From Candidatus Moraniibacteriota bacterium (GTDB lineage: Bacteria > Patescibacteriota > Minisyncoccia > JAHIHE01 > JAGLIN01): 42,777 nt of DNA. The notes under the pieces were generated by a model. The model was not told the DNA's origin and ran no database searches. It was given only the letters and a program-made list of their open reading frames with translations. This document shows, one piece after another, positions 4,796 through 42,777 of the stretch. How positions within the stretch are numbered: position 1 is the first letter of the stretch; each line of letters begins with the position of its first letter. The stretch lies in contig DAOWDS010000020.1 in the NCBI GenBank assembly GCA_030638895.1, positions 1-42,777 on the forward strand, given 5' to 3'. The position numbers were made by a program, and so were the translations under genes.

Positions 4796-4965
4796 GAAAA
4801 TCATATAAACATGTTAACATACTAACATTTTAACATATTTTAAATCACAGCAATAATATAAATTACAATACTTTAATATTTAATTTATTAAAAGCACTGA
4901 TATCAAATTTTAAAAAGACAAACAAAAGATCTTGTTAAAATGTTCATATGTTAAAATGAATATAG

Positions 4966-5181: not shown

Positions 5182-5274
5182 AAATCATTTTAACATATAA
5201 ACATACTAACATTTTAACATGTCAAAATGAAAGATTTGTGTTTTTCAGTCAATTTTCCAATACCCGACACAAGT

Positions 5275-10933: not shown

Positions 10934-11076
10934 AATTGGAGAATTAAATATGTCAGGACTTATATGTTTGCAGGTGTCCGACACCTTAAATACGGCAAAC
11001 GTGTAAGTCGTAATATAATTAATAAATACAATTAGTTGAGGAAAAAGGTTTAATAATTAATACTATATATCGCATA

Positions 11077-12144
11077 CTAAATATACCCCAGCTTTTTTGA
11101 GGCTATTACAAACATAGCATGTGACCAACAAAGAGGAGAAACAGCTATTTGTATTTTATTATTAAAAATCTGTTCAGGAATATATTTTTTATTTCCTAGA
11201 TCATTTAAAACTTTGTTGTAATACTCCAGCGCTTTCTTTTTGTTGTTTATTTCTAAATAATAAATAGTCATCCAGAAATTTAAAAGAGGCCAATATCCCG
11301 AGCCTTTTTTTCTATGTATATTTTTATTATACATCCATCCGTCATATATATCATTTTCGTATCTATACACCCTACCTTTCTTAACAATTTTTTCTTCAAT
11401 AAGTTTTACTGTTTTCTTCATCCTTTTATCATTCGCGCTTAATATTTTTGACGGCCAAGCAAGACCCAGCAATGAAGCATCCATTTTTTTATCATTTATT
11501 TTTCCAAAAGAACAATAAAAGTGATCTTTGAAATTTTTTAATAAAGTATTTTTCATCTCATTTGAAATTTTTAGCCATTTTTTATTTGGAATTAATTCAT
11601 TCGCGCAAGATAAGCCTTTATAGCAAATAGCAAGTGAATAGATAAAATTTTCTTTAAGATCTGGAAAACAAAATCTATCTTCCCATAAATTCTGAGTTAA
11701 TAAATTAAAATGATTTTTGTCCCATATTTTACATAAACCATTCGCCGATTTCTGAATAAGTTTTTCAAATTTTTTACAATCTTTTTTATTATTTTTATAA
11801 TAATGATATATTGCCATTAAAACGCTTCCAGTTTGATCGGGCTGAAAATGCTGCTGCAATTTTTTACCATTAATAAAATAATTTTGATAAAATAAGCCCG
11901 TTTTTTCCCAATCTTCAGCTTTCATGCACCATTTGAAAAATTTTTCTTGAATATCTATCCCAAGTATGCTTCCAGCGCTACAAATATACATAGCGTCTCT
12001 TGGCCAGACAAATTTATAATAATTTGCTTCTTTTGGAAAATATGGTTTAGTAGAATTTACGGCAACAATCGCGCCATTTGGAAATGAGCAGTCTTTTATA
12101 ACTTCTTCGCTAGCCTTTAATAATCTTAATATTTGTTTTTTCAT
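11077..12144 (-). CDS. Glycoside hydrolase family 15 (glucoamylase-related) protein
   Basis: 355 aa; FVWPRDAMYI and NLWEDRF motifs resemble the GH15 catalytic-domain signatures. Confidence 0.75.
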   Translation of the reverse strand: MKKQILRLLKASEEVIKDCSFPNGAIVAVNSTKPYFPKEANYYKFVWPRDAMYICSAGSILGIDIQEKFFKWCMKAEDWEKTGLFYQNYFINGKKLQQHFQPDQTGSVLMAIYHYYKNNKKDCKKFEKLIQKSANGLCKIWDKNHFNLLTQNLWEDRFCFPDLKENFIYSLAICYKGLSCANELIPNKKWLKISNEMKNTLLKNFKDHFYCSFGKINDKKMDASLLGLAWPSKILSANDKRMKKTVKLIEEKIVKKGRVYRYENDIYDGWMYNKNIHRKKGSGYWPLLNFWMTIYYLEINNKKKALEYYNKVLNDLGNKKYIPEQIFNNKIQIAVSPLCWSHAMFVIASKKLGYI

Positions 12145-21592: not shown

Positions 21593-21688
21593 ATTAAATC
21601 TCTTGCCTTATAACTAAAGAAATTTAAGAAGGCGCGCCTTTTGATTTATTTTTCCAAATCAAGCAAATAATTTAGAGAAAGATTTGTC

Positions 21689-21716
21689 AAATTTCTAAAT
21701 TTGAGATTTAGAAATT
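21689..21716. repeat. Perfect 12 bp-arm palindrome
   Basis: AAATTTCTAAAT-TTGAG-ATTTAGAAATT in the 520 bp intergenic region. Confidence 0.6.
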
Positions 21717-21816
21717 CAATAAAATTCTATTTTCCTAATTTTGAAAGAGAATCTTTATTAGTTGCTCTTTATTTTCTTTCAATGAGAACAAGCTCGCGTT
21801 GAGCCTTTTGCGATTT

Positions 21817-21860
21817 TAAATTTCCTTTTCAGAAATTCAAAAGATAAATTTGAAAAAATG
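21817..21860 (+). repeat. Minimal copy of the MITE-like termini with almost no interior
   Basis: TAAATTTCCTTTTC-AGAAATTC-AAAAGATAAATTTGAAAAAATG resembles the 5' terminus AAATTTACCTTTTT joined almost directly to the 3' terminus AAAGATAAACTTGGAAAAAATGG. Confidence 0.45.
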
Positions 21861-22115
21861 TTGCTATTCTATGGTTATTTTTTTACAAATGGAATAGTTT
21901 ATTATAAATCAGCCTTATAAAAGCTTAGATAAAATATGTCTGTTGATTGTAATAATGTTGCAGCTTGATAATATCAATTGACAATAAAAATAACAGATGC
22001 TACTGTTAGTGTATTAAAAATAAGTGATACACAACCAAATAATAGACAAAATGGAATTGCTTATAAAAAGTTATAAGCAAAATGTTTCGTTCATTAACAT
22101 TGAGAGGTAAAAAAT

Positions 22116-23018
22116 ATGACATTGAATATAAAAAAATACAGCTTTATGCCGTCGTTGATCTCTGCTATATTGATTGGAATATATCATATAGGAGCAGAAT
22201 CTTTTATAAGGTTTTTTGGAGATCATCTGCTGATTATGGCAGTTGTAATAAATATAAGCGGTGGAATATTTTTGTTCATACTCATTCCAAATAAAAAAGA
22301 AATTATCAAAAAAATGCCTGGAAAAGATTTACTGTCATTATTTGTTGCAAGTTTTTTCGCATTTGGACTGGCCTATCTGTGTCTTTATAAATCCATAGAT
22401 TTAATTGGATCGATTAAAGTTTCATTTTTGATTCAAATTGAAGCTGTGTTTATAATTATTCTCGCAATATTATTTTTAAAGGAAAGATTTAAGCTAATAG
22501 AATTTTTTGGGTTGCTTGTTGTCTTACTGGGAATTTTATTGTTAAATTTTGCCAATTCTTTGTTATCTTTTTCTATCGGAGTTGGAGAAATTTACACACT
22601 ATTGGCTGCGCTTTCTTTTGCGATTGGAATCATAATCATATCAAAACTGGTTAAAAAGTATAGTCTTACTTATTTGACCAGCATTGAGATGATTTTTGGA
22701 GGAATTATTCTTTCTTTATTTTTGATTGCCGATCCTATTGCGATAAAACCACTCTTCATATTATTATTGCTGCCCATAGGCTTTATTTTAGCAATGGGAT
22801 GGCTAACGTATAATCTCGGGGTAAAATATGTGGGAGCTGCGAAAAATGCGATAATTTTTTCTTCGCAATCATTTTTCACGCTAGTATTCTCTTATTTTAT
22901 CTGCAATCTTATTCCCTCTTTGGGAATTACAATTCCGTCAAATATACCATTTGTTCTGCTTGGAGGCGCGATCATATTTGGAGCCATAGTAATTTTAGAA
23001 CTTAGCAAAACAAAATAA
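22116..23018 (+). CDS. EamA/DMT superfamily transporter
   Basis: 300 aa, 10 TM, two-repeat EamA-like organisation. RBS GAGAGG lies upstream of the ATG. Confidence 0.75.
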   Translation: MTLNIKKYSFMPSLISAILIGIYHIGAESFIRFFGDHLLIMAVVINISGGIFLFILIPNKKEIIKKMPGKDLLSLFVASFFAFGLAYLCLYKSIDLIGSIKVSFLIQIEAVFIIILAILFLKERFKLIEFFGLLVVLLGILLLNFANSLLSFSIGVGEIYTLLAALSFAIGIIIISKLVKKYSLTYLTSIEMIFGGIILSLFLIADPIAIKPLFILLLLPIGFILAMGWLTYNLGVKYVGAAKNAIIFSSQSFFTLVFSYFICNLIPSLGITIPSNIPFVLLGGAIIFGAIVILELSKTK

Positions 23019-23188
23019 ATTTTTAGTCCTAAAATTAGGGCTTTTTATTTTTATATTTTAAATATATGAATTTGATGAATTTTTTAGTTAGCTACCGTCT
23101 TCTGACTAAAGCCTTGTACAATTTTACTTCCGGATTTGTTAATTCAGGAGCCTATCCCGCGCTTAATTTTTATAGTGCTGAGTTTTTT

Positions 23189-23350
23189 TAAATCTACCTT
23201 TTTCTATTTTGTCATTCCGGACTTGATCCGGAATCTTTTATCTTGTTGGTAATACTTTGCTAGCTTCACAAAGTCTAATGTTTCTAACCGTAGATTCTGA
23301 TCCGCCAGCTGGCGGACAAAATGACATTTTTTTACAAAGATAAACTTGAA
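23189..23350 (+). repeat. Nested-palindrome MITE-like element, copy 2
   Basis: AAATCTACCTTTTT..TGTCATTCCGGACTTGATCCGGAATC...TTCACAAAG...TAACCGTAGATTCTGATCCGCCAGCTGGCGGACAAAATGACA...AAAGATAAACTTG. Confidence 0.8.
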
Positions 23351-23353
23351 AAT

Positions 23354-23381
23354 TTGACACAAAGATATAATTTGCTATACT
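23354..23381 (+). promoter_or_regulatory. Promoter for the abiE genes
   Basis: TTGACA 23354-23359, 16 bp spacer, TATACT 23376-23381, directly abutting the MITE 3' terminus. Confidence 0.5.
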
Positions 23382-23418
23382 AAATATAGTTCTCGAATAA
23401 TTAACATCAACATTAACT

Positions 23419-24105
23419 ATGCTAGAACAAAAAATAGTAAATAAATTGTCAAAAGAGCTGCAAATCGCTCCTGAATTTATTGTCAGAGAAACTTGGGAAA
23501 TTATTATTTTAAAAGAGCTATTCGCTAAAAAATGGTCCGAAAAACTTGTTTTTAAGGGCGGAACTGCTTTGCGGCTGGCATATCAATCACCGCGTTTTTC
23601 AGTAGATCTTGATTTTTCAGTTTTGGCAAAAATAAATCCCAAAGATTTTTTCAGTTTTTTAAGCGCCTTGGGAAAAAAATATTCAGAACTGGAAATCATA
23701 GACAAAAAAGACAAGTTTTATACTCTCTACGCTCAAATTAAAATTAAAGAGGCTTTTTTGAACAGACCGTTTTCTATTAAAATTGAAATTTCAAAAAGAA
23801 AAAATCAATTCAAAAAAAACGAACATCTGCCAAAAGTTTTGAAAACTCTTGTTTATCCTATTGAGGTTCTCTGTGATACCGCCACGCTGGAAAAAATATA
23901 TCGTGACAAAATCACCACTATTCAAAACCGGCAAGCGCCTCGCGATTTATTTGATCTCTGGTATCTTTCGGAAAAATTAAACAAGTCCTTCAGGCCACCA
24001 AGCACAAAATTGACAAAAAAAAATATTAAAAGCGAATTGCATAAATTTCTTCCTCTAAATTATCAAAAGTCGGTAAAATTTATTATTAGCCAAATTAATA
24101 AATAA
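23419..24105 (+). CDS. abiEii: AbiEii/AbiGii-family nucleotidyltransferase toxin (type IV TA)
   Basis: LVFKGGTALRLAYQSPRFSVDLDF N-terminal NTase motif; 228 aa. Confidence 0.8.
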   Translation: MLEQKIVNKLSKELQIAPEFIVRETWEIIILKELFAKKWSEKLVFKGGTALRLAYQSPRFSVDLDFSVLAKINPKDFFSFLSALGKKYSELEIIDKKDKFYTLYAQIKIKEAFLNRPFSIKIEISKRKNQFKKNEHLPKVLKTLVYPIEVLCDTATLEKIYRDKITTIQNRQAPRDLFDLWYLSEKLNKSFRPPSTKLTKKNIKSELHKFLPLNYQKSVKFIISQINK

Positions 24106-24109
24106 TTTT

Positions 24110-24715
24110 ATGCGAATAAAAATAAAGATAGACAAAATCAAAAATTACAATAAAACGTTTTTTACTTTAAACGATTTAACGAAAATTTTTAATGTTAAAG
24201 AAGAGTCTCTTAAGGTAACATTGAATAGGTGGGTAAAAAACGGAAGAATTATCAGGTTAAGAAAAAATGTTTATCAATTTCCAGATAAAATTTATGATGT
24301 CAAAAAAATCGCCTTTCAGCTTTATAAACCGTGCTATTTGTCTTTTGAATCCGTTTTAAATGAGTACGGCATATTAAGCCAAATTCCATACACCTTAACA
24401 TTTGCCACAATAAACAAATCAAAAAAGATAATTCTTAAATCGCAGAAAATTGAATTTCACCAAATTAAAGAAACTTTGTTTTTCGGTTATGAATTTCGAA
24501 ATGGAATATTTCTCGCTATGCCAGAAAAAGCTCTCGCGGATCAAATCTATTTTGTTTCCCGCGGCTTAGCTGTTCTAAATTTCAAAGAATTGGATTTGAA
24601 AAATGTTTCCTGGAAAAAATTCAATTCTTTTGTTAAGTGCTACCCAAAATCAACACAGCTTTTAGCCAAAGAAATTAAACTTTATTTCGGCAAAACAGCC
24701 ATTACGATTAAATAA
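24110..24715 (+). CDS. abiEi: AbiEi-family antitoxin (wHTH transcriptional regulator)
   Basis: N-terminal FFTLNDLTKIF...LKVTLNRWVKNGRIIRLRKNVYQF wHTH typical of AbiEi. Lies 4 nt after abiEii, so the gene order is toxin first. Confidence 0.7.
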   Translation: MRIKIKIDKIKNYNKTFFTLNDLTKIFNVKEESLKVTLNRWVKNGRIIRLRKNVYQFPDKIYDVKKIAFQLYKPCYLSFESVLNEYGILSQIPYTLTFATINKSKKIILKSQKIEFHQIKETLFFGYEFRNGIFLAMPEKALADQIYFVSRGLAVLNFKELDLKNVSWKKFNSFVKCYPKSTQLLAKEIKLYFGKTAITIK

Positions 24716-24764
24716 TTTTTTAAAGAACTTTTTTATAGTCTTGAACTTAGTTTGGGGCTTGTCT

Positions 24765-24955
24765 AAATTTACCTTTTTATTCTGTCATTCTGGATAGTTT
24801 CACCTGTCATTCCGGACTCGATCTGGAATCTTTTTCTTTTAGGTGACACTTTCTCAATTTCACAAAAATAGAAGTTACCAACCATAGATTCTGAATTAAG
24901 CCTGCCTACCAGCAGGCAGATTCAGGATGACAATTTTTAAAAAGATAAACTTGGA
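24765..24955 (+). repeat. Nested-palindrome MITE-like element, copy 3 (duplicated head)
   Basis: AAATTTACCTTTTTATTCTGTCATTCTGG...CTGTCATTCCGGACTCGATCTGGAATC...TTCACAAAA...AACCATAGATTCTGAATTAAGCCTGCCTACCAGCAGGCAGATTCAGGATGACA..AAAGATAAACTTGG. Confidence 0.8.
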
Positions 24956-24988
24956 AAAAATGGAAGAAGTTTAAGCAAAATCGGATAT

Positions 24989-25198
24989 TCAATCCTTCAA
25001 ATTTCTTCTCATGACTATTTCGTTTTCCTCTTTTGTGTTGGTATTCTTACCGCCACAATATGAACAAAACTCAAAATCTTGATCACACTGGAAAACGAAA
25101 TAACTTCCACATTTTTTGCATTTATAATTCACCTCAATATGTATAAATGCAAGTCCTAATTTCAGCAGAATATAATCTGCTATTGTTTTGTTCATCAT
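24989..25198 (-). CDS. Small zinc-ribbon protein (69 aa)
   Basis: CKKCG...CSYCGG. The ATG lies 7 nt after a GGAGG that overlaps the stop of the upstream ORF (translational coupling). Confidence 0.6.
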   Translation of the reverse strand: MMNKTIADYILLKLGLAFIHIEVNYKCKKCGSYFVFQCDQDFEFCSYCGGKNTNTKEENEIVMRRNLKD

Positions 25199-25201
25199 TT
25201 A

Positions 25202-25576
25202 TCACCTCCACATGAACATCCTAAAAAGAAATACGGTCATACCAATCGTACAATATACTGCGTATACTTGTGTTAATGTAGCGTTGGTTAAACTAGAATA
25301 ACCAATCCCTATCACCACACAACAAAGAAAAATGCTTGCTAGTATACCCAAAATTCTGTCTCCCTTTTTTTCTTCTGTATTAAAAAAACAGTAGAAAAGT
25401 CCAGAAAAGACTACAAACAACACAAATGCCCATACTAATAATCCAGCAACAAATGACGTTGCTAACTCAACTCCAAAAATTTTCAACACAAAGCTAACAG
25501 TATTTGTAATAATAAATACAACAAACAAAATTACAAATGTTGAAATTCCTGCAGCACCAGCTCCTCCTAAGGACAT
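25202..25576 (-). CDS. Small 4-TM membrane protein (124 aa)
   Basis: Four hydrophobic helices; AGGTGA RBS 5 nt before the ATG; ends in TGA. Confidence 0.6.
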   Translation of the reverse strand: MSLGGAGAAGISTFVILFVVFIITNTVSFVLKIFGVELATSFVAGLLVWAFVLFVVFSGLFYCFFNTEEKKGDRILGILASIFLCCVVIGIGYSSLTNATLTQVYAVYCTIGMTVFLFRMFMWR

Positions 25577-25996
25577 GTAATCACCTGTTCGCTCCCAAAT
25601 TTCATCAAAGCAGAATTACAAAACATTTCGTCTTGTAATCAAATCATATTGTGACGCTTCTCAATTTAAAGGAGCTATAAACTTGATGCCTGAACTATCG
25701 TTCAGGACTTAAAGTTGATTATAATAATTTACAATCAATTATAAGCCCTAAAGATTTTTGAGATATTTTGATTTCAAAGAACAATTTCCTTCCCAAATCA
25801 GGCAAACAGCTTGGAAAGAGATTTAATAGATTTTTAAATATACAATTTAAAAATATAATAAAATTCTGCCTACCTGATTTTGAAAGATAATATTTATTTG
25901 TTGGCTCCATACTCCGTGTAGAGCCTTTGTTATTGGTTCAATGTCTCTGATTTGAATCATAATTCATCAACTCTCAAATATATTCAAGAGCTTTTC

Positions 25997-26135
25997 TAAA
26001 TTTATCTTTTTGTTTCGGAGTCCTGACAAAAGTCAGGGTGAAGCTTCGTTAGGCGTTATTATAAAATAATATCTATTGAGACTTCACCTCCGACTTTCGT
26101 CGGAACTCCAAATTTTTATAAAAGATAAACTTGGA
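25997..26135 (+). repeat. MITE-like element, variant interior, copy 4
   Basis: Same termini (CTAAATTTATCTTTTT ... AAAGATAAACTTGGAAAAAATGG) but different internal hairpins (CCTGAC-AAAA-GTCAGG; TCCGAC-TTTC-GTCGGA). Confidence 0.7.
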
Positions 26136-26402
26136 AAAAATGGCGAAGAGAAAAAACGATTTTTATTTCGAATTTTCTCTCTAAGACTTTTTTCTGATCT
26201 ATATTTTCTTTAATTTCAGCTTCAGCTTTAAATTTTTTATCACCTTCAACAATCCCTGAAATTTCAGGTGTTGGGAGGTTTGTTTTATGATTCTTTGGAA
26301 CTGGCATTATTTCTGAGCTCATACATTTATCTTAATTACTTTATCTCTATTTTAGCCTATTTTTGAAAAAATTCAAAGGTTTTGTGAAATATTTACGTTT
26401 TT

Positions 26403-26434
26403 GGTGACGAGCACCTTTTTGGGTGCCCGTCACC
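26403..26434. other. GC-rich 13 bp-stem hairpin upstream of hypF
   Basis: GGTGACGAGCACC-TTTTTG-GGTGCCCGTCACC (one mismatch). No U-tract follows on either strand. Confidence 0.5.
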
Positions 26435-26496
26435 TCTATGTTTGTATAAAGTTTAACGACATTATATAATATAATAAGTAAATATAATTGTAATAG

Positions 26497-27849
26497 ATGA
26501 AAATTAATCAAAACATAATCATTCTCGCTCTTGGCGCTGAATCTTGCGGAAGATTTGCTGTTTATTCTAATGGTGAAATTTTTGTGTCGGAGAATTTTGG
26601 CGACCTTTTGCGGAAAGAAAATTTTAAAAAATATAAAAAATCGGTTTTAAAACAAATCAAAACCAAAAAACCAGATGTGATTTTAACAGATTTACATCCG
26701 CTTTATGTTTCAACAGTTTTAGGAGAAGAATTATCAGAAAAACATAAAATTTCACATATCAAAGTTCAACATCATATCGCCCATATATTCTCAGCAGTTG
26801 GAGATAAATTTTATTGCGAAGAGCAATGTCATAACAATTTTACTTCTTGTCATCCTGAGCTTGTCAAAGAATCTTTGCTTAATGGACTTGCAAGAAATTA
26901 TTTGACTGCTTCGCCAACTGACGAATCTGCTCAGTATAACAGAGTTAATTTTATAATAAATACTAAATACTTAATACTTAATACTTTCTATGGTATTGCT
27001 TCTGATGGAACAGGCTATGGTTTTGATGAAAATATTTGGGGTGGAGAAGTTTTTAAGTTCACTCAAATAGGTCCCACTGACAAAGCCTGTCCTGAGCGAA
27101 AGTCGAATGGAGGGGCTAGGGGGTTAGAAAACGGCCAAAGAACAGAGACTCTTCGACAGGCTCAGAGTGACAAGATTGAAAGAATTGGCTCACTTGAGGA
27201 ACAGATAATGATTGGCGGAGATTTGGCGGTAAAAGAGCCGGCGCGGATGCTTATCAGTATTTTAAATAAATTTTTATCAAAAGATAAAGTTTACAAAAAT
27301 GTAAAAGGATATTATACAAATAATGAATTTGAACTTTTATATAGCCAGCTTCAACAAAATTTCAACTGCCAAACAACAACAAGTACTGGAAGAATTCTAG
27401 ACGCCGTGTCAGTTTTGCTTGAATTCGCAAAAAATGAAAGAAGATCAAAACACGGAGCAATAAAACTTCTTGAAAAAAATTCGACTATTCCATATAAATT
27501 AACGCCAAAAATTAAGAATGATGAATCAAGAAAGATTATAGATACTACCTATTTATTTGAATATCTGCTGAAAAATATTTCAAAAGATAAAAAAAGATTA
27601 GCCGCCACAGCGCAGGAATATATAGCTAAAGGATTTGATGAAATTGTGAAAGAAAGATTAGTTTTAAACGAAAATATACTAAATATTAAATACCGCATAC
27701 TAAATATTTATTTCGCCGGAGGCATGGCAAACAATAAAATTATGTCTTCTTATCTTGAAAATAAAGGTATTTATATATCAAAAAAAATCTCTCGCGGTGA
27801 CGAAGGAATTGCGTTTGGACAGATTATGTATTATCTGTTAAATTTTTAA
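26497..27849 (+). CDS. hypF: HypF-like carbamoyltransferase, Kae1-like C-terminal domain only, with in-frame repeat insertions
   Basis: LALGAESCGRF...GDL, DLHPLY, VQHHIAHI, DGTGYG..WGGE and GGMANN...DEGIAFGQ match the HypF C-terminal domain. No acylphosphatase, Zn-finger or YrdC-like parts. Confidence 0.75.
   Translation: MKINQNIIILALGAESCGRFAVYSNGEIFVSENFGDLLRKENFKKYKKSVLKQIKTKKPDVILTDLHPLYVSTVLGEELSEKHKISHIKVQHHIAHIFSAVGDKFYCEEQCHNNFTSCHPELVKESLLNGLARNYLTASPTDESAQYNRVNFIINTKYLILNTFYGIASDGTGYGFDENIWGGEVFKFTQIGPTDKACPERKSNGGARGLENGQRTETLRQAQSDKIERIGSLEEQIMIGGDLAVKEPARMLISILNKFLSKDKVYKNVKGYYTNNEFELLYSQLQQNFNCQTTTSTGRILDAVSVLLEFAKNERRSKHGAIKLLEKNSTIPYKLTPKIKNDESRKIIDTTYLFEYLLKNISKDKKRLAATAQEYIAKGFDEIVKERLVLNENILNIKYRILNIYFAGGMANNKIMSSYLENKGIYISKKISRGDEGIAFGQIMYYLLNF
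26848..26943 (+). repeat. In-frame palindromic-element insertion 1 in hypF (96 bp)
   Basis: TGTCATCCTGAGCTTGTCAAAGAATCTT ... GAATCTGCTCAGTATAACAG, homologous to the copy-1 head and tail. Encodes CHPELVKESLLNGLARNYLTASPTDESAQYN. Confidence 0.65.
27088..27174 (+). repeat. In-frame palindromic-element insertion 2 in hypF (GC-rich)
   Basis: TGTCCTGAGCGAAAGTCGAATGG ... CTTCGACAGGCTCAGAGTGACA inverted arms. Encodes CPERKSNGGARGLENGQRTETLRQAQSD. Local GC is far above the flanking sequence. Confidence 0.65.
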
Positions 27850-29454: not shown

Positions 29455-29826
29455 TTATTTTTTACCCTTTAAAGTTAAAATACTTGAAGCTATAATTTTT
29501 GATATTTCAATCAGTTCATCTAATAGCCATTTTATTTCTTCTTTATTACCTTTGTCGGTATCCCTTAAAAGTGTTAACCAAACCTTAGATTCGTTGGATG
29601 ATTTAAGAGAATAAGTAAAAAAGTTTATAAAGTCTTTTTTAGAACTGGCAGAATTTGCTTCTATGTAATTTGCTAAAATGCTTGTGCCGCTTCTTAGAAG
29701 TTGCTTTCCAATAACATTACATGTTGAATCTTTTGGCAGCTTATCAACAAACTTTATCATTCTTAAAGCCCAATTATAAAGTCTTTTTTTGAATTCATTT
29801 TTAAACTTTACATCGTCATTTTCCAT
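29455..29826 (-). CDS. Four-helix-bundle protein (23S rRNA intervening-sequence protein family)
   Basis: LRSGTSILANYIEANSASSKKDFINFFTYSLKSSNESKVWL matches the family pattern. Confidence 0.75.
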   Translation of the reverse strand: MENDDVKFKNEFKKRLYNWALRMIKFVDKLPKDSTCNVIGKQLLRSGTSILANYIEANSASSKKDFINFFTYSLKSSNESKVWLTLLRDTDKGNKEEIKWLLDELIEISKIIASSILTLKGKK

Positions 29827-29847: not shown

Positions 29848-30981
29848 TTATATATATTTCGCCTCAATCCCGCAAGCACCCTCTGAAGAAACCATACACG
29901 CGCCAACCGGATTTTCAGGGGTGCATTTTTTATTAAATAATTTGCAATCTTTCGGTTGTTTAAGCCCGCGAAGAATTGTTCCGCAAAGACACTGTTTACT
30001 AATGTTATTCTGGAGTGAAACGATAGAATCCCGTAATTCAGCTCCTTGAGTTGTGGTATCGGGATTCTTCATTTCGCTATCGCTCCATTCAGAATGACAG
30101 TTTGATAAAATATTTTTATATTTAATCTTTGCATTATACTTTGAATATTTTTTTCTTATTTCTAAACCGGAATTTGGAATATTTCCAAGCCCTCTCCAAA
30201 AAGCGTTTCCTGTTTCAAAAACTTCATCAACGAGTTTCAACGCTGCTGGGTTTCCTTCGGGCCGAACAGATCTTGCATATTCGTTTTCAACTTCCGCTCT
30301 GCCTTCCGCGACTTGCCTTAAAATCATATAAATTGCAATAAGAACATCTTCTCCAGTAAAACCGGCGATAACTTGAGGTAATTTAAATTTTTTATAAGGA
30401 TCTATTCCGATTATTGTTGAAACATGTCCCGGATCTAAAAAACCGTCGATTTTTAACTGTGGAGTATCAATAATGGCTTGCATCGCGGGAACAAAAAGTT
30501 TATGAGACGAATATACGGTTAGACTTCTCTTAATCGCGCTTGCTGTCATTGGGGTCGTTGTATCAAACCCAACTCCAAAAAAAACTAGATCCTGGTTTTC
30601 TTTTTGTAATTTCAATGCGTCTTCCGTTGAATATACTTCATTAACATCCGCTCCAAGTTCGCGCGCTTTATTGAGGCTTAAACTTTGTTTTTCTTTGTCA
30701 GATTTTAAAACTAAATTTCCTGGAACGCGAAGAACATCTCCATAACAAGCAATTGGCACGCCATTTAGCGCCAGGGTTATTATCGCATCAACGTCTTTTT
30801 GGTCTGTAACACAAACCGGGCATCCAGGCCCAGAAAGAAGTTTCACGTTTTTCGGCAAAATTTTCTTAATGCCGTTTTTCGCAACTGCTTCCGTATGCGT
30901 TCCGCAAAGCTCCATAATCACAATATCGCGACTGATTTTTTTTGCGAGAGTTTCTATTTTTTTGATTATATTAAAAGTCAT
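29848..30981 (-). CDS. hypD: Hydrogenase maturation protein HypD with a 32-aa in-frame insertion
   Basis: MELCGTHTEA, GPGCPVCVT and C-terminal CTPENPVGACMVSSEGACG. Confidence 0.9.
   Translation of the reverse strand: MTFNIIKKIETLAKKISRDIVIMELCGTHTEAVAKNGIKKILPKNVKLLSGPGCPVCVTDQKDVDAIITLALNGVPIACYGDVLRVPGNLVLKSDKEKQSLSLNKARELGADVNEVYSTEDALKLQKENQDLVFFGVGFDTTTPMTASAIKRSLTVYSSHKLFVPAMQAIIDTPQLKIDGFLDPGHVSTIIGIDPYKKFKLPQVIAGFTGEDVLIAIYMILRQVAEGRAEVENEYARSVRPEGNPAALKLVDEVFETGNAFWRGLGNIPNSGLEIRKKYSKYNAKIKYKNILSNCHSEWSDSEMKNPDTTTQGAELRDSIVSLQNNISKQCLCGTILRGLKQPKDCKLFNKKCTPENPVGACMVSSEGACGIEAKYI
30003..30098 (-). repeat. In-frame palindromic-element insertion in hypD (96 bp)
   Basis: Inverted arms TGTTATTCTGGAGTGAAACGATAG / CTATCGCTCCATTCAGAATGACA with inner GAATCCCG/CGGGATTC. 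Encodes CHSEWSDSEMKNPDTTTQGAELRDSIVSLQNN. Confidence 0.7.
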
Positions 30982-31007: not shown

Positions 31008-31158
31008 TAAATCTACCTTTTTAATTTTGTCATTTCAGGCAACATCATCTGTCATTCCGGACTTGATCCGAAATCTTTTATCCCTTAGGTAATGCTCTGT
31101 TAATTTCACAAATCTTTTTATTACTAACCGAAGATTCTGAATTAAATTCAGAATGACA
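31008..31158 (+). repeat. Nested-palindrome MITE-like element, copy 5, in the hypC-hypD spacer
   Basis: AAATCTACCTTTTTAATTTTGTCATTTCAGG...CTGTCATTCCGGACTTGATCCGAAATC...TTCACAAATC...TAACCGAAGATTCTGAATTAAATTCAGAATGACA. Confidence 0.8.
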
Positions 31159-32844: not shown

Positions 32845-32874
32845 AACAGCCAACTATTCCAATACTAATATAAT

Positions 32875-32890
32875 TGTTTCACGTGAAACA
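32875..32890. promoter_or_regulatory. parS: parS centromere-like site A (perfect consensus)
   Basis: TGTTTCACGTGAAACA; extended palindrome AATTGTTTCACGTGAAACAATT at 32872-32893. Confidence 0.8.
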
Positions 32891-33164
32891 ATTGAGAATG
32901 TCGTTTTAAGCCTATTTATAAAAAATCATAACTTACACTATTAATACGTATTTATATATGAAAGAATAGAAAGTACTAAACTAAATTCAGCGCAACAATG
33001 GTTGTTGTCAAATTAGAATTCATAATAACATACTAACATAATCACGTAATAACATTTTAACATAACAATTATGCGTAGTAATTTTAATTGTTAAAATGCT
33101 ATTATTAGGACGCAGAAAAATACTTTTTATAGCTGTCTATAAATAATACTATACCAGAAATAAG

Positions 33165-33295
33165 AAAGGTTCAGGTTGGACTTGTTTAGTTTATAGATCT
33201 CGCAGTCGTTATCGCTCTTTCGAGATGACAAAAGTGTTCTTCTGCAGTCTAACCCGTATTAACACAATGCTTCGACAAGTTCAGGATGTCATTTA
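33165..33295. repeat. Degenerate MITE-like element
   Basis: Contains CGAGATGACAAAAG and GACAAGTTCAGGATGTCAT (the latter is the reverse complement of the copy-1 head) plus the inner inverted repeat ATCTCG/CGAGAT. Confidence 0.45.
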
Positions 33296-33383: not shown

Positions 33384-35030
33384 CTATTCTTGAGTGTTTC
33401 TTGAAATTGCCAGTATTAAGGCTAAAACTAACCAAAAGATTAAACGACCCTGTTGTAATGTCCAAAAATAATGATCAAATATTCCTATAAATAAAAATGA
33501 TATTAATATTGCGATTAAAAAATAGTTTAATTTCCTTATATCTAAAATTGTTTCACGTGAAACAATTTTTATTGATCCTAAAATAACATATATTATAAAA
33601 AGAAGGAAAATTAATAAGCCAACCAAGCCAATCTCAGAGGCAATTAAAAAATAGATATTATGAGCGGGCTGATATTGCCATGACTCAAGTTCTTGTTTGA
33701 TATTATTATTTTCAAGATAATTATTGATTTGAAAAATAGATGTTCCTATTCCAGAACCAAAAAGAAAATTGTTTGAAATTGTTTCACGTGAAACAATATT
33801 ATAAAATGTTCTATCAGAAAAAGCAGAATTATTAGACAAAGTATCGTTACTAAACAAAGCTCCGTCAATTCGCGCTTGAATTAAAGAAAAATTTGAAATA
33901 ATTAAAAATAAAGATAAAAAACAAACAATAATTAATTCTTTATAGCAAAAAAGTAATTTTAGTATTTTTTTATAATTATTAACTGGTTTTAATAAAATTG
34001 TTTCACGTGAAACAATTTTATGGTCATAAAGATAAAGCACGCTTATCACAAATAAAGACAACAAAAATCCTATCCAAGCAGTTCTCGAAAATGTAAAAAA
34101 TATCGCCGCAGTTTGAACAAATATAAGAGTTATCCATAATAAAGAATATAATATATCTTGACTTTGGATACTATTTATGTTATTATATTGAAATAATCTT
34201 AAAAATTTAATTGTTTTAATATACACAAATTTAAATATTTGTGTCAAACAAATGTAAATAAACATTTTCTTATTTTCTGAATATGCTCTAAAGTCTAATT
34301 GACTTGACAAACTACATCTTTTATGTTCTAAATATAAATAAATTGTAATTACTGTCGTAAAAATTAAAAAACCTCCAAGAATGTTTGGATGAGGAAAAGT
34401 TCCATAAGCTCTTATTATTTTTTCACCGTCCACTGCTATCTTTGCAACTCCCGGAATTTGCGGACCAATAACTGATTCTCCTGTAATTTTAGCCAAAATT
34501 GGAGAAGAAAAAACTGAATGTTGCGCAATAAACTGATAAATTGCGATAAGACTCTGTAAAAAGCCGGAGAAAACTATAATAAACAAGCTCGTAAACAATG
34601 TTTTACTGTTTTTAAAATTAAAATAAACAAAAATCACTAAAAGAGATAATTCTATTAATTTAACTGTTTGAAAAATGTTTATTTTTGGATAATTATTGTT
34701 AATTGCTAAATTTAGCGTTATCCAAATAAAAAAAACAAGTAAAAACAACCAGACTTTGGGCAGCTTAGCTCCCTTTTTAAATTTATTATATATAGATTTA
34801 GATACTTCACTTAAGTAGGAAAAATTTTTAAAAATAAAAAAGATCCAAAAAAATATAGCTAAGATCAAAAAAATATCAGACGCATAGACAAACAAGGTTG
34901 TCCATTCAGTAAATGCGTCACTATAGAATGAATAATCAGTCAAAAAAACCTTCCTCGTTTGAAAGGGGATTAAAAATAGAAATAAATAGAAAAAATAGAT
35001 GTGTAGATTGTTAAGTTTTATCAACTTCAT
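33384..35030 (-). CDS. O-antigen ligase/polymerase (Wzy_C) family membrane protein carrying three in-frame parS sites
   Basis: 548 aa polytopic protein; FTFSRTAWIGFLLSLFV and QPAHNIYFLIASEIGLVGL motifs; IVSRETI appears three times. Confidence 0.75.
   Translation of the reverse strand: MKLIKLNNLHIYFFYLFLFLIPFQTRKVFLTDYSFYSDAFTEWTTLFVYASDIFLILAIFFWIFFIFKNFSYLSEVSKSIYNKFKKGAKLPKVWLFLLVFFIWITLNLAINNNYPKINIFQTVKLIELSLLVIFVYFNFKNSKTLFTSLFIIVFSGFLQSLIAIYQFIAQHSVFSSPILAKITGESVIGPQIPGVAKIAVDGEKIIRAYGTFPHPNILGGFLIFTTVITIYLYLEHKRCSLSSQLDFRAYSENKKMFIYICLTQIFKFVYIKTIKFLRLFQYNNINSIQSQDILYSLLWITLIFVQTAAIFFTFSRTAWIGFLLSLFVISVLYLYDHKIVSRETILLKPVNNYKKILKLLFCYKELIIVCFLSLFLIISNFSLIQARIDGALFSNDTLSNNSAFSDRTFYNIVSRETISNNFLFGSGIGTSIFQINNYLENNNIKQELESWQYQPAHNIYFLIASEIGLVGLLIFLLFIIYVILGSIKIVSRETILDIRKLNYFLIAILISFLFIGIFDHYFWTLQQGRLIFWLVLALILAISRNTQE
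33549..33564. promoter_or_regulatory. parS: parS site B
   Basis: TGTTTCACGTGAAACA within the 26 bp palindrome AAAATTGTTTCACGTGAAACAATTTT (33544-33569). Confidence 0.8.
33780..33795. promoter_or_regulatory. parS: parS site C
   Basis: TGTTTCACGTGAAACA, preceded by a partial duplication AAAATTGTTTGAAATTGTTT. Confidence 0.8.
33999..34014. promoter_or_regulatory. parS: parS site D
   Basis: TGTTTCACGTGAAACA within AAAATTGTTTCACGTGAAACAATTTT (33994-34019). Confidence 0.8.
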
Positions 35031-40818: not shown

Positions 40819-41103
40819 TTACTCAACTTTATACATTTTAGATATCTCAAGATATTCAGTAATATTAAAATCATATTCTTTTTTGTTTTCATCTTTGAGA
40901 TATTTCTTTTCAAGATATTTGAAAATTGAAGGCCTGTTAGACAATGCGTGCCAATCTCCAAGCCCTTCGCTTAAATAGACAGTTTTTAGATTGTTATCTT
41001 TTTTAAATTGAATCGCAACTTTGATAATTTCATCACATAAGATTTTCTCGTCAACTTCATAGAGAAAGCTTGAGTTTGGGTTTATTCCACGCAGTAAAAG
41101 AGA
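40819..41103 (-). CDS. Open frame (95 codons) continuing the upstream large ORF after an A8 tract; reached by a -1 shift
   Basis: SLLLRGINPNSSFLYEVDEKILCDEIIKVAIQFKKDNNLKTVYLSEGLGDWHALSNRPSIFKYLEKK...KMYKVE. No usable start codon of its own. Confidence 0.55.
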   Translation of the reverse strand, partial: SLLLRGINPNSSFLYEVDEKILCDEIIKVAIQFKKDNNLKTVYLSEGLGDWHALSNRPSIFKYLEKKYLKDENKKEYDFNITEYLEISKMYKVE

Positions 41104-42776
41104 TTTTTTTTGTCATCATCAATAATATAAGCTTGAATATTGCCCCTTATTATTTCATTGTTTTTCCCGATATCTTCAACTAAATTAATGTGGAAATGAT
41201 CTTTGCGATTAAAAAGATCCATATTGTCTGCGGTGCAGATCCCAGCTGAAGCTTTGGAGAAGAAAGATCCGATGTTTTTTGAAATATACGCTTTTAGAGC
41301 AATCTTTTCTTTTTTCATCCTACTCGTTCCTTCTTTTTGATATTTTTCTATAATCTTGTTCAATTCTTTGCTTATCTTTTCTCTTTCTGTCTTTATTATT
41401 TTGTTTTCAACAAAAGTTGATAATAATATGCTTATTTTTTCTATATCTAAATCTTCCCAATATTCATCAGTTAATATTTTGTTATCTTTTTTAAGTTCTT
41501 TTCTGATAGACTTGATAAATGCTTCTTTCTTGTTTTTGTCTTGCAATGTTTGTATTATTCTGTCTTTTATCTCAGGATTTTCATTTAAAAAATTTTCAAG
41601 CTCTTCTTTAAAATTATCTTTAAAAATAATTCCAAGGACTCCCTTTGTTTCAAATAGGTAATTATATAAATCATTTATATTATTTTTATCAAAATGTTTT
41701 TCTGACAAAGAGGAAATATTTTCATTTTTTATTATGCTTATTAAATATGATAAGTTATTGCTATCTAAGCTTGGAGAAGCTTTGGTAATTTTGTCTAAAA
41801 CTTTAGAAACTTTTTGATTATAATCCTCTTCTTTGTTTTTCTCAACTGATCTTTTTATTATCCTTGCTACATACTCTATGTTTTTAAAATTGATTTCTTT
41901 TCCTTTTCTAATAACTTTTTCTGTAGGAGCTACTATGTTAATTTCATATCCATCTTCTGGAAACTTGTATCTTGCTAAGTCTCCTGTTTTGTCTTGTAAT
42001 TCTTTAAGGTATTTCTTAACTTCATTAAAACTCATTCCAATGGGATTATACACGATGTAAATTAATTCTGCCATTTCATCAAAATTTCTTTTCATATCAA
42101 TTGGATTGTTTTTAAACATTCCTTTTTTATTTTCATTTATTTCATTTACATAAATATCTCTTTCTTTTGAATCAAACTTTTTATACTTTTCAAAGATAAT
42201 TGGAAATATGTTTCCAAACTTATCAAGCATATCAAAGATATCTTTATAATCTTTTTCTATATCTATATTCCCATTCTCGCTAATAGTTTCTAAAACATTA
42301 TTTGCGGTGTTACTGTATTGATTGAATAGTTTCTTTAGAAAGCTTATCTCTTGTTCGTTATGCTGTTCCATACTTATTGTTTGATTTAAACTATTTATTG
42401 ATTCATATCCTATTTTAGAAATATTGCTTTTGTTAATCATGTCGTTTTTGATAGTGTATTCAAGATTTTTTTCTTTTGCGTATTCTAAAATATATCTAAC
42501 ATTTTCATTTGCGCACATTTTCTCAAATTCTTGAGTAGTTTTAATCTGGTAAAGATTAACGACATATTTAAGATTTTTTTCTTTTGCGTATCTTAAAACG
42601 TCTTTAACATTTTCATTTGCGCACATTTTCTCAAATTCTTGAGTAGTTTTAATCTGGTAAAGATTAACGGCATGTTTAAGATTTTCTTCTTTTGCGTATT
42701 CTAAAATATATCTAACATTTTCATTTGCGCACATTTTCTCAAATTCTTGAGTAGTTTTAATCTGGTAAAGATTAAC
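41082..42776 (-). CDS. Large hypothetical protein with N-terminal 36-aa tandem repeats, 5' end beyond window, interrupted at an A8 tract
   Basis: The frame stays open to the window edge (VNLYQIKTTQEFEK upstream of the annotated Met). No recognised family. Confidence 0.6.
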   Translation of the reverse strand, partial: VNLYQIKTTQEFEKMCANENVRYILEYAKEENLKHAVNLYQIKTTQEFEKMCANENVKDVLRYAKEKNLKYVVNLYQIKTTQEFEKMCANENVRYILEYAKEKNLEYTIKNDMINKSNISKIGYESINSLNQTISMEQHNEQEISFLKKLFNQYSNTANNVLETISENGNIDIEKDYKDIFDMLDKFGNIFPIIFEKYKKFDSKERDIYVNEINENKKGMFKNNPIDMKRNFDEMAELIYIVYNPIGMSFNEVKKYLKELQDKTGDLARYKFPEDGYEINIVAPTEKVIRKGKEINFKNIEYVARIIKRSVEKNKEEDYNQKVSKVLDKITKASPSLDSNNLSYLISIIKNENISSLSEKHFDKNNINDLYNYLFETKGVLGIIFKDNFKEELENFLNENPEIKDRIIQTLQDKNKKEAFIKSIRKELKKDNKILTDEYWEDLDIEKISILLSTFVENKIIKTEREKISKELNKIIEKYQKEGTSRMKKEKIALKAYISKNIGSFFSKASAGICTADNMDLFNRKDHFHINLVEDIGKNNEIIRGNIQAYIIDDDKKNLFYCVE

Positions 42777-42777
42777 G
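42455..42777 (-). repeat. 108 bp tandem repeat (about 3 units, continuing past the window edge)
   Basis: GCGCACATTTTCTCAAATTCTTGAGTAGTTTTAATCTGGTAAAGATTAACG recurs at 42511, 42619 and 42727 (period exactly 108 bp = 36 codons). Confidence 0.85.

Follow-up and report, generated by a model that had tools for sequence, protein, structure and literature searches.

The 42,777 nucleotides (nt) of contig DAOWDS010000020.1 from Candidatus Moraniibacteriota bacterium (hereafter the window) have a GC content of 31% and encode proteins that find their best matches among Patescibacteria (candidate phyla radiation, CPR) assembled from metagenomes and labelled Paceibacterota or Parcubacteria. The window carries a cluster of hyp genes into which small palindromic repeat elements seem to have been inserted in frame, two into hypF (F1 and F2) and one into hypD (D1). 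The hypF open reading frame (ORF; 26497-27849, plus strand) encodes 450 amino acids (aa) that correspond to the Kae1-like carbamoyltransferase half of HypF only: PF17788 covers aa 9-102, the match to PF22521 is broken into two stretches, and TIGR00143 is matched only at its profile positions ~513-739, scoring 182 bits where the cutoff is 466. Neither this gene nor the region upstream of it encodes the acylphosphatase, zinc-finger or YrdC-like parts of canonical HypF, and the HxxxH and DG(T/V)G motifs, invariant in the alignment of orthologues, are present. This short architecture of two domains is common to all 120 of the 120 best homologues listed, which are 360-511 aa long. After hypF follow, on the minus strand, hypE, a gene for a four-helix-bundle "23S rRNA intervening sequence (IVS) protein", hypD and hypC. 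The hypD ORF (29848-30981, minus strand) encodes 377 aa (PF01924, E 2e-122), versus 340-355 aa in orthologues without insertions.

F1 occupies positions 26827-26941 on the plus strand (115 nt, aa 111-149 of HypF). Its main head, TGTCATCCTGAGCTTGTCAAAGAATC, begins at 26848 and its degenerate tail, GCTCAGTATAACA, ends at 26941, with head and tail arms of 13 nt that are 85% complementary. An extra degenerate head lies at 26827, 21 nt upstream of the main one, in the same double-head layout as in two intergenic elements described below (E3 and E4), and the reading frame of the element thus runs from aa 111 (first head) or 118 (main head) to aa 149. A preliminary description of this DNA had placed the segment at 26848-26943, which holds for the main head and nearly so for the end (26941), and had missed the extra head that moves the start upstream. 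F2 (27088-27172, plus strand, 85 nt, aa 198-226 of HypF) has lost 3 nt from its head (TGTC---CTGAGC) and keeps an intact tail, GCTCAGAGTGACA; the two termini pair in the predicted fold. Its GC content of 53% compares with 40-42% in the 60-nt flanks and 32% for the whole hypF gene: the segment is GC-rich as first described, but the contrast with its surroundings is less stark than the AT-rich flanks of that description implied. We discarded GC content as a detector of elements, for it is not specific, many conserved coding stretches and tRNAs of the window exceeding 50% GC as well. D1 (30003-30099, minus strand, 97 nt) is read as aa 295-327 of HypD (CHSEWSDSEMKNP...SLQNN), just before the C-terminal Fe-S cysteine motif; it is a nested palindrome with three pairs of inverted-repeat arms (z-score of the DNA fold, -3.1). 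All three segments are in frame, the first T of TGT being at codon position 1 (TGT CAT or TGT CCT), and the common phase from the head that had been reported for the hypF pair therefore stands. Removal as an intein, as an intron or at the RNA level was considered and rejected, the segments being 28-38 codons long and having neither splicing signatures nor a matching RNA family.

The window contains 11 occurrences of the motif TGTCAYYCYGR, where 0.07 would be expected. Eight of these matches make up four intergenic elements of ~105-150 nt (E1-E4) and the other three lie in genes, as the F1 head (26848), the F2 tail (27172) and the head in hypD (30099), which brings the elements of the 42.8-kb window to seven (E1-E4, F1, F2, D1). 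Inverted head-tail pairs of the motif delimit E1 (1703-1808), E3 (24783-24932) and E4 (31028-31158, between hypD and hypC), all on the plus strand, and the second head of E3 adds one match; E2 (23210-23326, plus strand, upstream of an AbiEii gene) supplies a single match, its head, because its tail is degenerate. Both E3 (24783, 24805) and E4 (31028, 31050) have a double head, the second one lying 22 nt upstream of the main head, and E3 has a nested GC hairpin in its tail. Each terminus forms a small hairpin of its own, e.g., TGTC ATTCCGGA CTTGA TCCGGAAT C, with head and tail inverted. The terminal unit can be written as TGTC, a short hairpin (ATYCYGR...YCRGRAT) and C, the ends of an element reading TGTC...GACA, and an element as two such inverted units around a variable spacer, ~85-150 nt in total and non-coding. 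E1, with its head hairpin, spacer and inverted tail hairpin, folds with a z-score of -4.0; the folds of E1-E3 all surpass those of shuffled controls (z-scores -3.4 to -4.4), and that of E4 does not (-1.5). [quoted passage not shown] No direct repeats indicative of a target-site duplication are evident next to E1-E4, and an Rfam search returned tRNAs only. These elements presumably are, or were, mobile.

Two further observations concern the same repeats. A conserved motif, AAAAGATAAACTTGGAAAAAATGG, occurs twice in the window (24934-24963, 26114-26143) and twice in a related genome (L007:2979, L007:4639), and in each of the two one copy directly abuts the tail of an element. Downstream of a ligase-like gene, positions 33216-33288, with a short ORF reading ...MLRQVQD, match the terminal-unit profile weakly and probably represent a decayed element.

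Evidence that the in-gene copies belong with these repeats comes largely from other genomes. A profile of 310 distinct terminal units, drawn from other genomes only, gives its best match in the window at the F1 head (E 0.001) and its second best at the F2 tail (E 0.004), with the D1 head in fifth place (E 0.014), and its matches in F1, F2 and D1 interleave with those in E1-E4. When the in-gene elements were compared by blastn with 1.14 Mb of related loci (81 sequences), the listed matches all lay outside ORFs: the F1 head is identical over 23 of 23 nt to an intergenic element beside hypD (L004:14909, E 1.6e-6), the D1 tail matches an intergenic copy at 28 of 30 nt (L007:4936, E 5e-6), the F2 tail another at 21 of 22 nt (L009:2348, E 0.001) and the F2 head a further one at 22 of 24 nt (L007:4599, E 0.016). 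The similarity of the two hypF segments to intergenic copies, proposed in the preliminary description, is thus significant once related genomes are included. Within the window, what F1 and F2 have in common with the intergenic copies is limited to the architecture and terminal motif and does not extend to the element as a whole.

Comparison with orthologues and with solved structures supports the view of these segments as insertions. The spacer between HxxxH and DGTG measures 25-29 aa in 81 of the 116 Patescibacteria orthologues and 73 aa in the window, and that between GGE and LEEQ has a median of 21 aa in this set versus 48 aa in the window; both window spacers are the longest of all 116, in agreement with the lineage-specific insertions that had been suggested. 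HypF of T. kodakarensis (4G9I) has one residue in place of window residues 105-160 and four in place of residues 187-224, and across solved HypF structures the F1 and F2 sites hold 1-4 residues. The extra lengths at F1, F2 and D1 (+45, +27 and +28 aa) are in keeping with element sizes of 38, 28 and 32 aa. At the F1 and F2 sites, canonical versions are present in the closest relatives (62-64% identity), with peptides CHPELVEGFQSVETTRDSSTPLRSAQND (CHPELVEGF...LRSAQND) that read TGTCA...CTGAGC...GCTCAGAATGACA in nucleotides, while three loci (L004, L010, L012) have neither F1 nor F2; six divergent genomes keep F1 in frame. The D1 site of HypD lies right before the C-terminal cysteine motif and takes the place of 8 residues of the 2Z1D structure. 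Distant orthologues have nothing at this site, some close ones have a short segment (HSELVEES), and others have a full one.

An AlphaFold model of the window HypF (mean predicted local distance difference test, pLDDT, 80; predicted template modelling score, pTM, 0.81) has HypF crystal structures as its top matches in the Protein Data Bank (3VTH, 4G9I, 3TSP; E ~1e-20 or lower). Its pLDDT falls below 50 only at residues 111-149 (F1), 156-158, 193-222 (F2) and the six-residue stretch 395-400, a result that accords with surface loops at the two segments. In the model, F1 follows the HxxxH helix and precedes the next strand, and F2 separates two beta strands. The HypD model was too poor for use (pLDDT 53), and the loop position of D1 is for that reason taken from the 2Z1D alignment only. 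Short AT-rich direct repeats (ATACTAAATA...) are also found at 26953-26984, 27676-27707 and 11053-11084; in hypF they encode NTKYLILNT and NILNIKYRILNI at two more variable loops, which orthologues fill with similar peptides (NTKYSILNT, DSRFQIPDS).

Based on these data, F1, F2 and D1 are very probably in-frame insertions of repeat elements that are read as loops, and the two palindromic segments first described in hypF are confirmed, with coordinates good to about 2 nt once the extra F1 head is set apart. We propose that small non-coding palindromic elements mainly occupy the intergenic DNA of Patescibacteria, and that F1, F2 and D1 would be copies that landed in genes. These would have survived because their net length kept the frame, because this frame (TGT|CAT...GAC|A) was read without stops and because the sites were permissive loops between secondary-structure elements. 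The segments may then be transcribed and translated as disordered surface excursions of ~28-38 residues.

Several observations weigh against this interpretation. An nhmmer profile of E1-E4 recovers the F1 head alone, weakly (E 0.14), and leaves F2 and D1 undetected beyond their termini. The intergenic copies of the window are therefore a different subfamily; a strict single family uniting them with the in-gene copies was therefore rejected and the superfamily kept. Accordingly, of the membership claimed in the preliminary description, the shared terminal motif and architecture stand, and a common subfamily with the intergenic copies of the window does not. The fold energy of F2 is unremarkable compared to controls (z-score -1.2). 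The lengths of all three window elements equal 1 mod 3, as do those of seven of the eight phase-0 elements found in ORFs elsewhere, which means that the ends as defined by the motif cannot be those of the whole inserted unit, two further bases being implied. It is from the intact ORFs only that we infer translation of the segments and their retention in a working protein, and the function of a short HypF devoid of the canonical N-terminal half is itself not certain.

Similar insertions recur in related genomes. Other insertion hot spots in the HypF and HypD alignments read CHSERSRSGVKNP...FARNDK, SVIASSPSADGERGNP...LLRRSDD and CHCEE...RATKQSQ; these peptides belong to the same superfamily as F1, F2 and D1, and occur in the same and in other loops of both proteins. 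In the 1.14 Mb of related loci we counted 40 strict head-tail pairs (37 distinct elements after merging of nested double heads), ten of them inside long ORFs and eight of these ten in the TGT|CAT phase. The 17% of the sequence that lies outside long ORFs holds 81 of the 152 termini (53%). Heads within ORFs are mostly read in the TGT|CAT frame (22, versus 6 for GTC|ATT and 2 for TCA), and 30 of the 41 tails in ORFs end in GAC|A. The TCA frame usually runs into TGA, but the TGT|CAT and GTC|ATT frames give stop-free readings of whole elements about equally often (20 and 23 of 74), so that avoidance of stops does not alone explain the preference for TGT|CAT; the peptide read in this frame (C-H-P/S-E... 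versus V-I-L...) is plausibly friendlier to loops. ORFs with in-phase termini comprise 20 for HypF, four for HypD and 13 others, of which only a handful lie in a setting that resembles an element, the remainder having the look of chance matches. A search for other host proteins with the 33-aa D1 peptide among 1.8 billion representatives gave no match at E ≤0.001.

A candidate partner gene is found in one of the related loci. L004 has three elements between hypD and hypC, and the middle one (~400 nt, L004:15041-15444) encloses, between head and tail, an ORF for a 94-aa GIY-YIG nuclease (PF01541); the head and tail of this cassette match the adjoining 106-nt elements, including their sub-terminal sequence. 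As a scan for cassettes between termini found GIY-YIG in this one of ~80 hypF loci, a metagenome scan was needed to test the link. This set consisted of 80 loci (L085-L164) encoding relatives of the 94-aa protein (56-77% identity), 65 of which could be evaluated, with at least 250 nt on each side of the gene. An inward-reading terminus lies within 250 nt upstream in 41 of these 65 loci, downstream in 41 and on both sides in 27, usually at 30-100 nt from the ORF, and the nearest terminus points inward in a ratio of 34:12 on the upstream side and 37:12 on the downstream side. Termini number 6.96 per kb within 0-150 nt of the gene, ~37 times the background, and then 1.27, 0.41 and, beyond 600 nt, 0.19 per kb; inside the gene there are 0.05 per kb. 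The 94-aa nuclease could thus be the partner enzyme of the elements, a proposal to which we give somewhat less than an even chance. The single case among the hypF loci speaks against it, as does the absence of a GIY-YIG gene or transposase from the window. We found no transposase and no Y1/HUH (RAYT) gene in the window or in the loci examined, and the 94-aa protein has no recognisable DNA-binding domain. In the literature, we found no paper linking GIY-YIG genes to REP (repetitive extragenic palindrome), REPIN (REP doublet forming hairpins) or MITE-like repeats, and none on such elements in Patescibacteria.

A comparable arrangement is known from REPIN-RAYT systems, which consist of an inverted doublet of hairpin repeats and a gene for a REP-associated tyrosine transposase (RAYT) flanked by inverted REPs (PMC3116915; PMC3337134). 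The elements described here similarly consist of an inverted pair of short hairpins with a spacer, and one small gene of nuclease type is flanked inversely. Yet this gene encodes a GIY-YIG nuclease and not a Y1/HUH tyrosine transposase, and the ends read TGTC...GACA with neither a GTAG nor a CGTC tag (PMC3733652); the elements thus lack two defining features of REPIN-RAYT systems. Moreover, REPINs are described as extragenic, whereas the present elements are also found in frame inside genes. Free-standing GIY-YIG homing endonuclease genes offer another parallel, being likewise small, selfish-looking PF01541 genes in variable intergenic spacers. The gene found here differs from them in encoding only 94 aa without a recognisable DNA-binding domain, in being bracketed by inverted repeats that form hairpins, and in that these repeats also exist as copies without a gene.

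By analogy with REPIN-RAYT, we tentatively envisage an as yet undescribed mobile system, a functional counterpart based on another nuclease, in which a minimal GIY-YIG gene lies between inverted hairpin termini and gene-less derivatives of ~100 nt may spread in Patescibacteria genomes and time and again colonise surface loops of conserved enzymes in one preferred frame, some of them, such as D1, perhaps evolving with the repeat population and not with the protein of the host gene. It is also conceivable, although we consider it rather unlikely, that the elements are moved in trans by another enzyme, such as an insertion sequence (IS) transposase or a Y1/HUH protein, the GIY-YIG gene being a passenger or an invading homing endonuclease. 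The position of a GIY-YIG gene between termini would be explained equally well by invasion of an element at its centre and by a relation of parent and derivative, and both the lack of such a gene in the window and the lack of an obvious DNA-binding domain in its product are in line with another mover. On the other hand, no transposase was seen in the window or near the elements examined, the association of nuclease and termini is very tight and local, and the short elements and the cassette of L004 share sub-terminal sequence.

The in-gene copies differ in their evolutionary behaviour. Nucleotide identity between lineages is 0.43-0.61 in F1 and F2, versus 0.72-0.78 in the hypF core, which fits old insertions that evolve fast under relaxed constraint, the window F1 being visibly decayed. 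D1 behaves differently: hypD of the window is 74% identical overall to that of L007 and D1 87.5%, 39 of its first 40 nt being matched. Per 15 codons, nucleotide identity in D1 is 0.84-0.93, as in the catalytic core of hypD, versus 0.74 for hypD overall. Where D1 residues are identical between the two genomes, all 20 keep their codon; elsewhere in hypD this holds for 137 of 263 (Fisher p 5e-6). Each of the 12 nucleotide differences falls in a codon that changes the residue, and 10 of 32 residues differ. With this lack of synonymous divergence, D1 behaves as a DNA element and not as a selected peptide. Either D1 is younger than the split of the host genes, or it has been homogenised by other copies, or it is constrained as DNA or RNA.

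The last of these options touches on co-option, in which the hairpin (as DNA or mRNA) or the peptide of the in-gene copies would have a role, for instance in translational pausing between subdomains or as a new interaction surface. The conservation of D1 at the level of the catalytic core would be expected in that case, F2 has retained paired termini and a high GC content, and copies in ORFs favour one of two equally open frames. We nevertheless regard co-option as improbable: the confinement of the D1 differences to residue-changing codons indicates no purifying selection on its peptide, divergence of F1 and F2 is fast, the sites are only sporadically occupied across orthologues, and a recent insertion or gene conversion from other copies would explain the conservation of D1 equally well. 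Still less probable is that hypF and hypD are decaying pseudogenes, or were disabled by the insertions, their open frames being leftovers. HypF does lack its acylphosphatase, zinc-finger and YrdC-like parts, and F1 and F2 evolve faster than the core; but an open frame of 450 codons is unlikely to persist by chance at 31% GC, 62 columns, including HxxxH and DGTG, are invariant across 38 aligned sequences and by definition intact here, the short architecture recurs in more than 100 orthologues with F1 in frame in six divergent genomes, and hypC, hypD and hypE are intact alongside hypF. As for an ordinary lineage-specific expansion of the loops or low-complexity drift with a coincidental likeness to the termini, the HypF loops do vary in length at the F1 and F2 sites in nearly all orthologues, with AT-rich low-complexity peptides (NTKYLILNT) there, and F1 is decayed and reaches only E 0.14 with the E1-E4 profile, but this explanation is largely refuted and now hardly credible, given segments that are palindromic at the nucleotide level, match intergenic copies of other genomes at 23/23, 28/30 and 21/22 nt, rank at the top of the window with the external profile and have canonical counterparts at the F1 and F2 sites of relatives.

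Among known systems, in-frame insertion of repeat elements as proposed here most resembles the Rickettsia palindromic elements (RPE), repeats of ~100-150 nt that occur between genes and inside unrelated genes, where they are in frame and add peptide segments at positions compatible with the fold (Ogata et al., 2000, 2002, summarised in PMC10969869 and PMC3184786). F1, F2 and D1 are likewise in frame at fold-compatible sites and belong to multi-copy palindromes with pairing arms, and the likeness to RPE pointed out in the preliminary description holds as an account of how the insertions work. The elements are set apart from the RPE families by lineage (the phylum Patescibacteria and not the Alphaproteobacteria), by what appears to be a different sequence family, with TGTCAYYCYGR termini that each form their own hairpin, by the presence of several subfamilies in the same loops of one protein family across many genomes, and by the candidate GIY-YIG gene, no such gene being named for RPE in the reviews consulted (PMC10969869; PMC3184786). 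In-frame fusions of MITEs have occasionally been reported in Coxiella, enterobacteria and pneumococci (PMC10969869; PMC3184786; PMC5896051). Like MITEs, the present elements occur in many short copies that code for nothing, have inverted repeats at their termini and are occasionally fused in frame to host ORFs. No IS-type parent or target-site duplication was identified for them, and longer relatives with the same ends encode a GIY-YIG nuclease and not a known transposase. They differ from most of the reported fusions, which extend the ends of genes or affect hypothetical proteins, and not the internal loops of conserved enzymes.

In-frame "selfish" palindromes have so far been treated mostly as a peculiarity of Rickettsia, and a review of 2024 merely supposes that they may occur elsewhere (PMC10969869). 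The elements of the hyp genes would constitute a second, independent case, with another repeat family and in a bacterial radiation that is both very large and very different. Repeated insertion into the same loops of HypF and HypD may provide a natural map of the tolerance of these proteins to insertions of ~30 residues. It also calls for caution, as peptides derived from repeats (CHSERS...ARNDK) and the resulting variation in length can mislead alignments, domain calls and trees in Patescibacteria. Finally, no mobilising enzyme is otherwise known for this repeat family, and the 94-aa GIY-YIG protein is a candidate for that role.

The gene for the IVS protein (29455-29826, minus strand), a four-helix bundle, is wedged between hypE and hypD, and the hyp spacers of relatives carry genes for GIY-YIG or DUF559 endonucleases instead; small selfish genes thus seem to have a hot spot in the hyp cluster. 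Upstream of hypF, ~4.9 kb (21593-26496) separate it from a trypsin-like gene, versus 170-320 nt in syntenic relatives. This region contains small ORFs, a gene for an EamA transporter and, between E2 and E3, an AbiEii/AbiEi pair, with 114-nt direct repeats near both ends (21651-21764 and 25790-25903, 75% identical).

Other repeats of the window are of different kinds. A perfect 18-nt palindrome, TTGTTTCACGTGAAACAA, occurs in four copies (32874-32891, 33548-33565, 33779-33796, 33998-34015) where none is expected, and three of these lie inside an O-antigen-ligase-like ORF (33384-35030, minus strand), each in frame as IVSRETI; this is a second kind of in-frame palindrome, unrelated to the TGTCAYYCYGR elements. 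Runs of a motif with a period of 8 nt (TAACATnn) are found beside tRNA genes and in one other spacer (4798-4836, 5182-5228, 33017-33063). At the edge of the window (42459-42777), a unit of 108 nt is repeated in three tandem copies that are 93-98% identical, mostly within an ORF of 550 aa (41082-42734, minus strand) that has no Pfam match, the third copy passing the start of this ORF.

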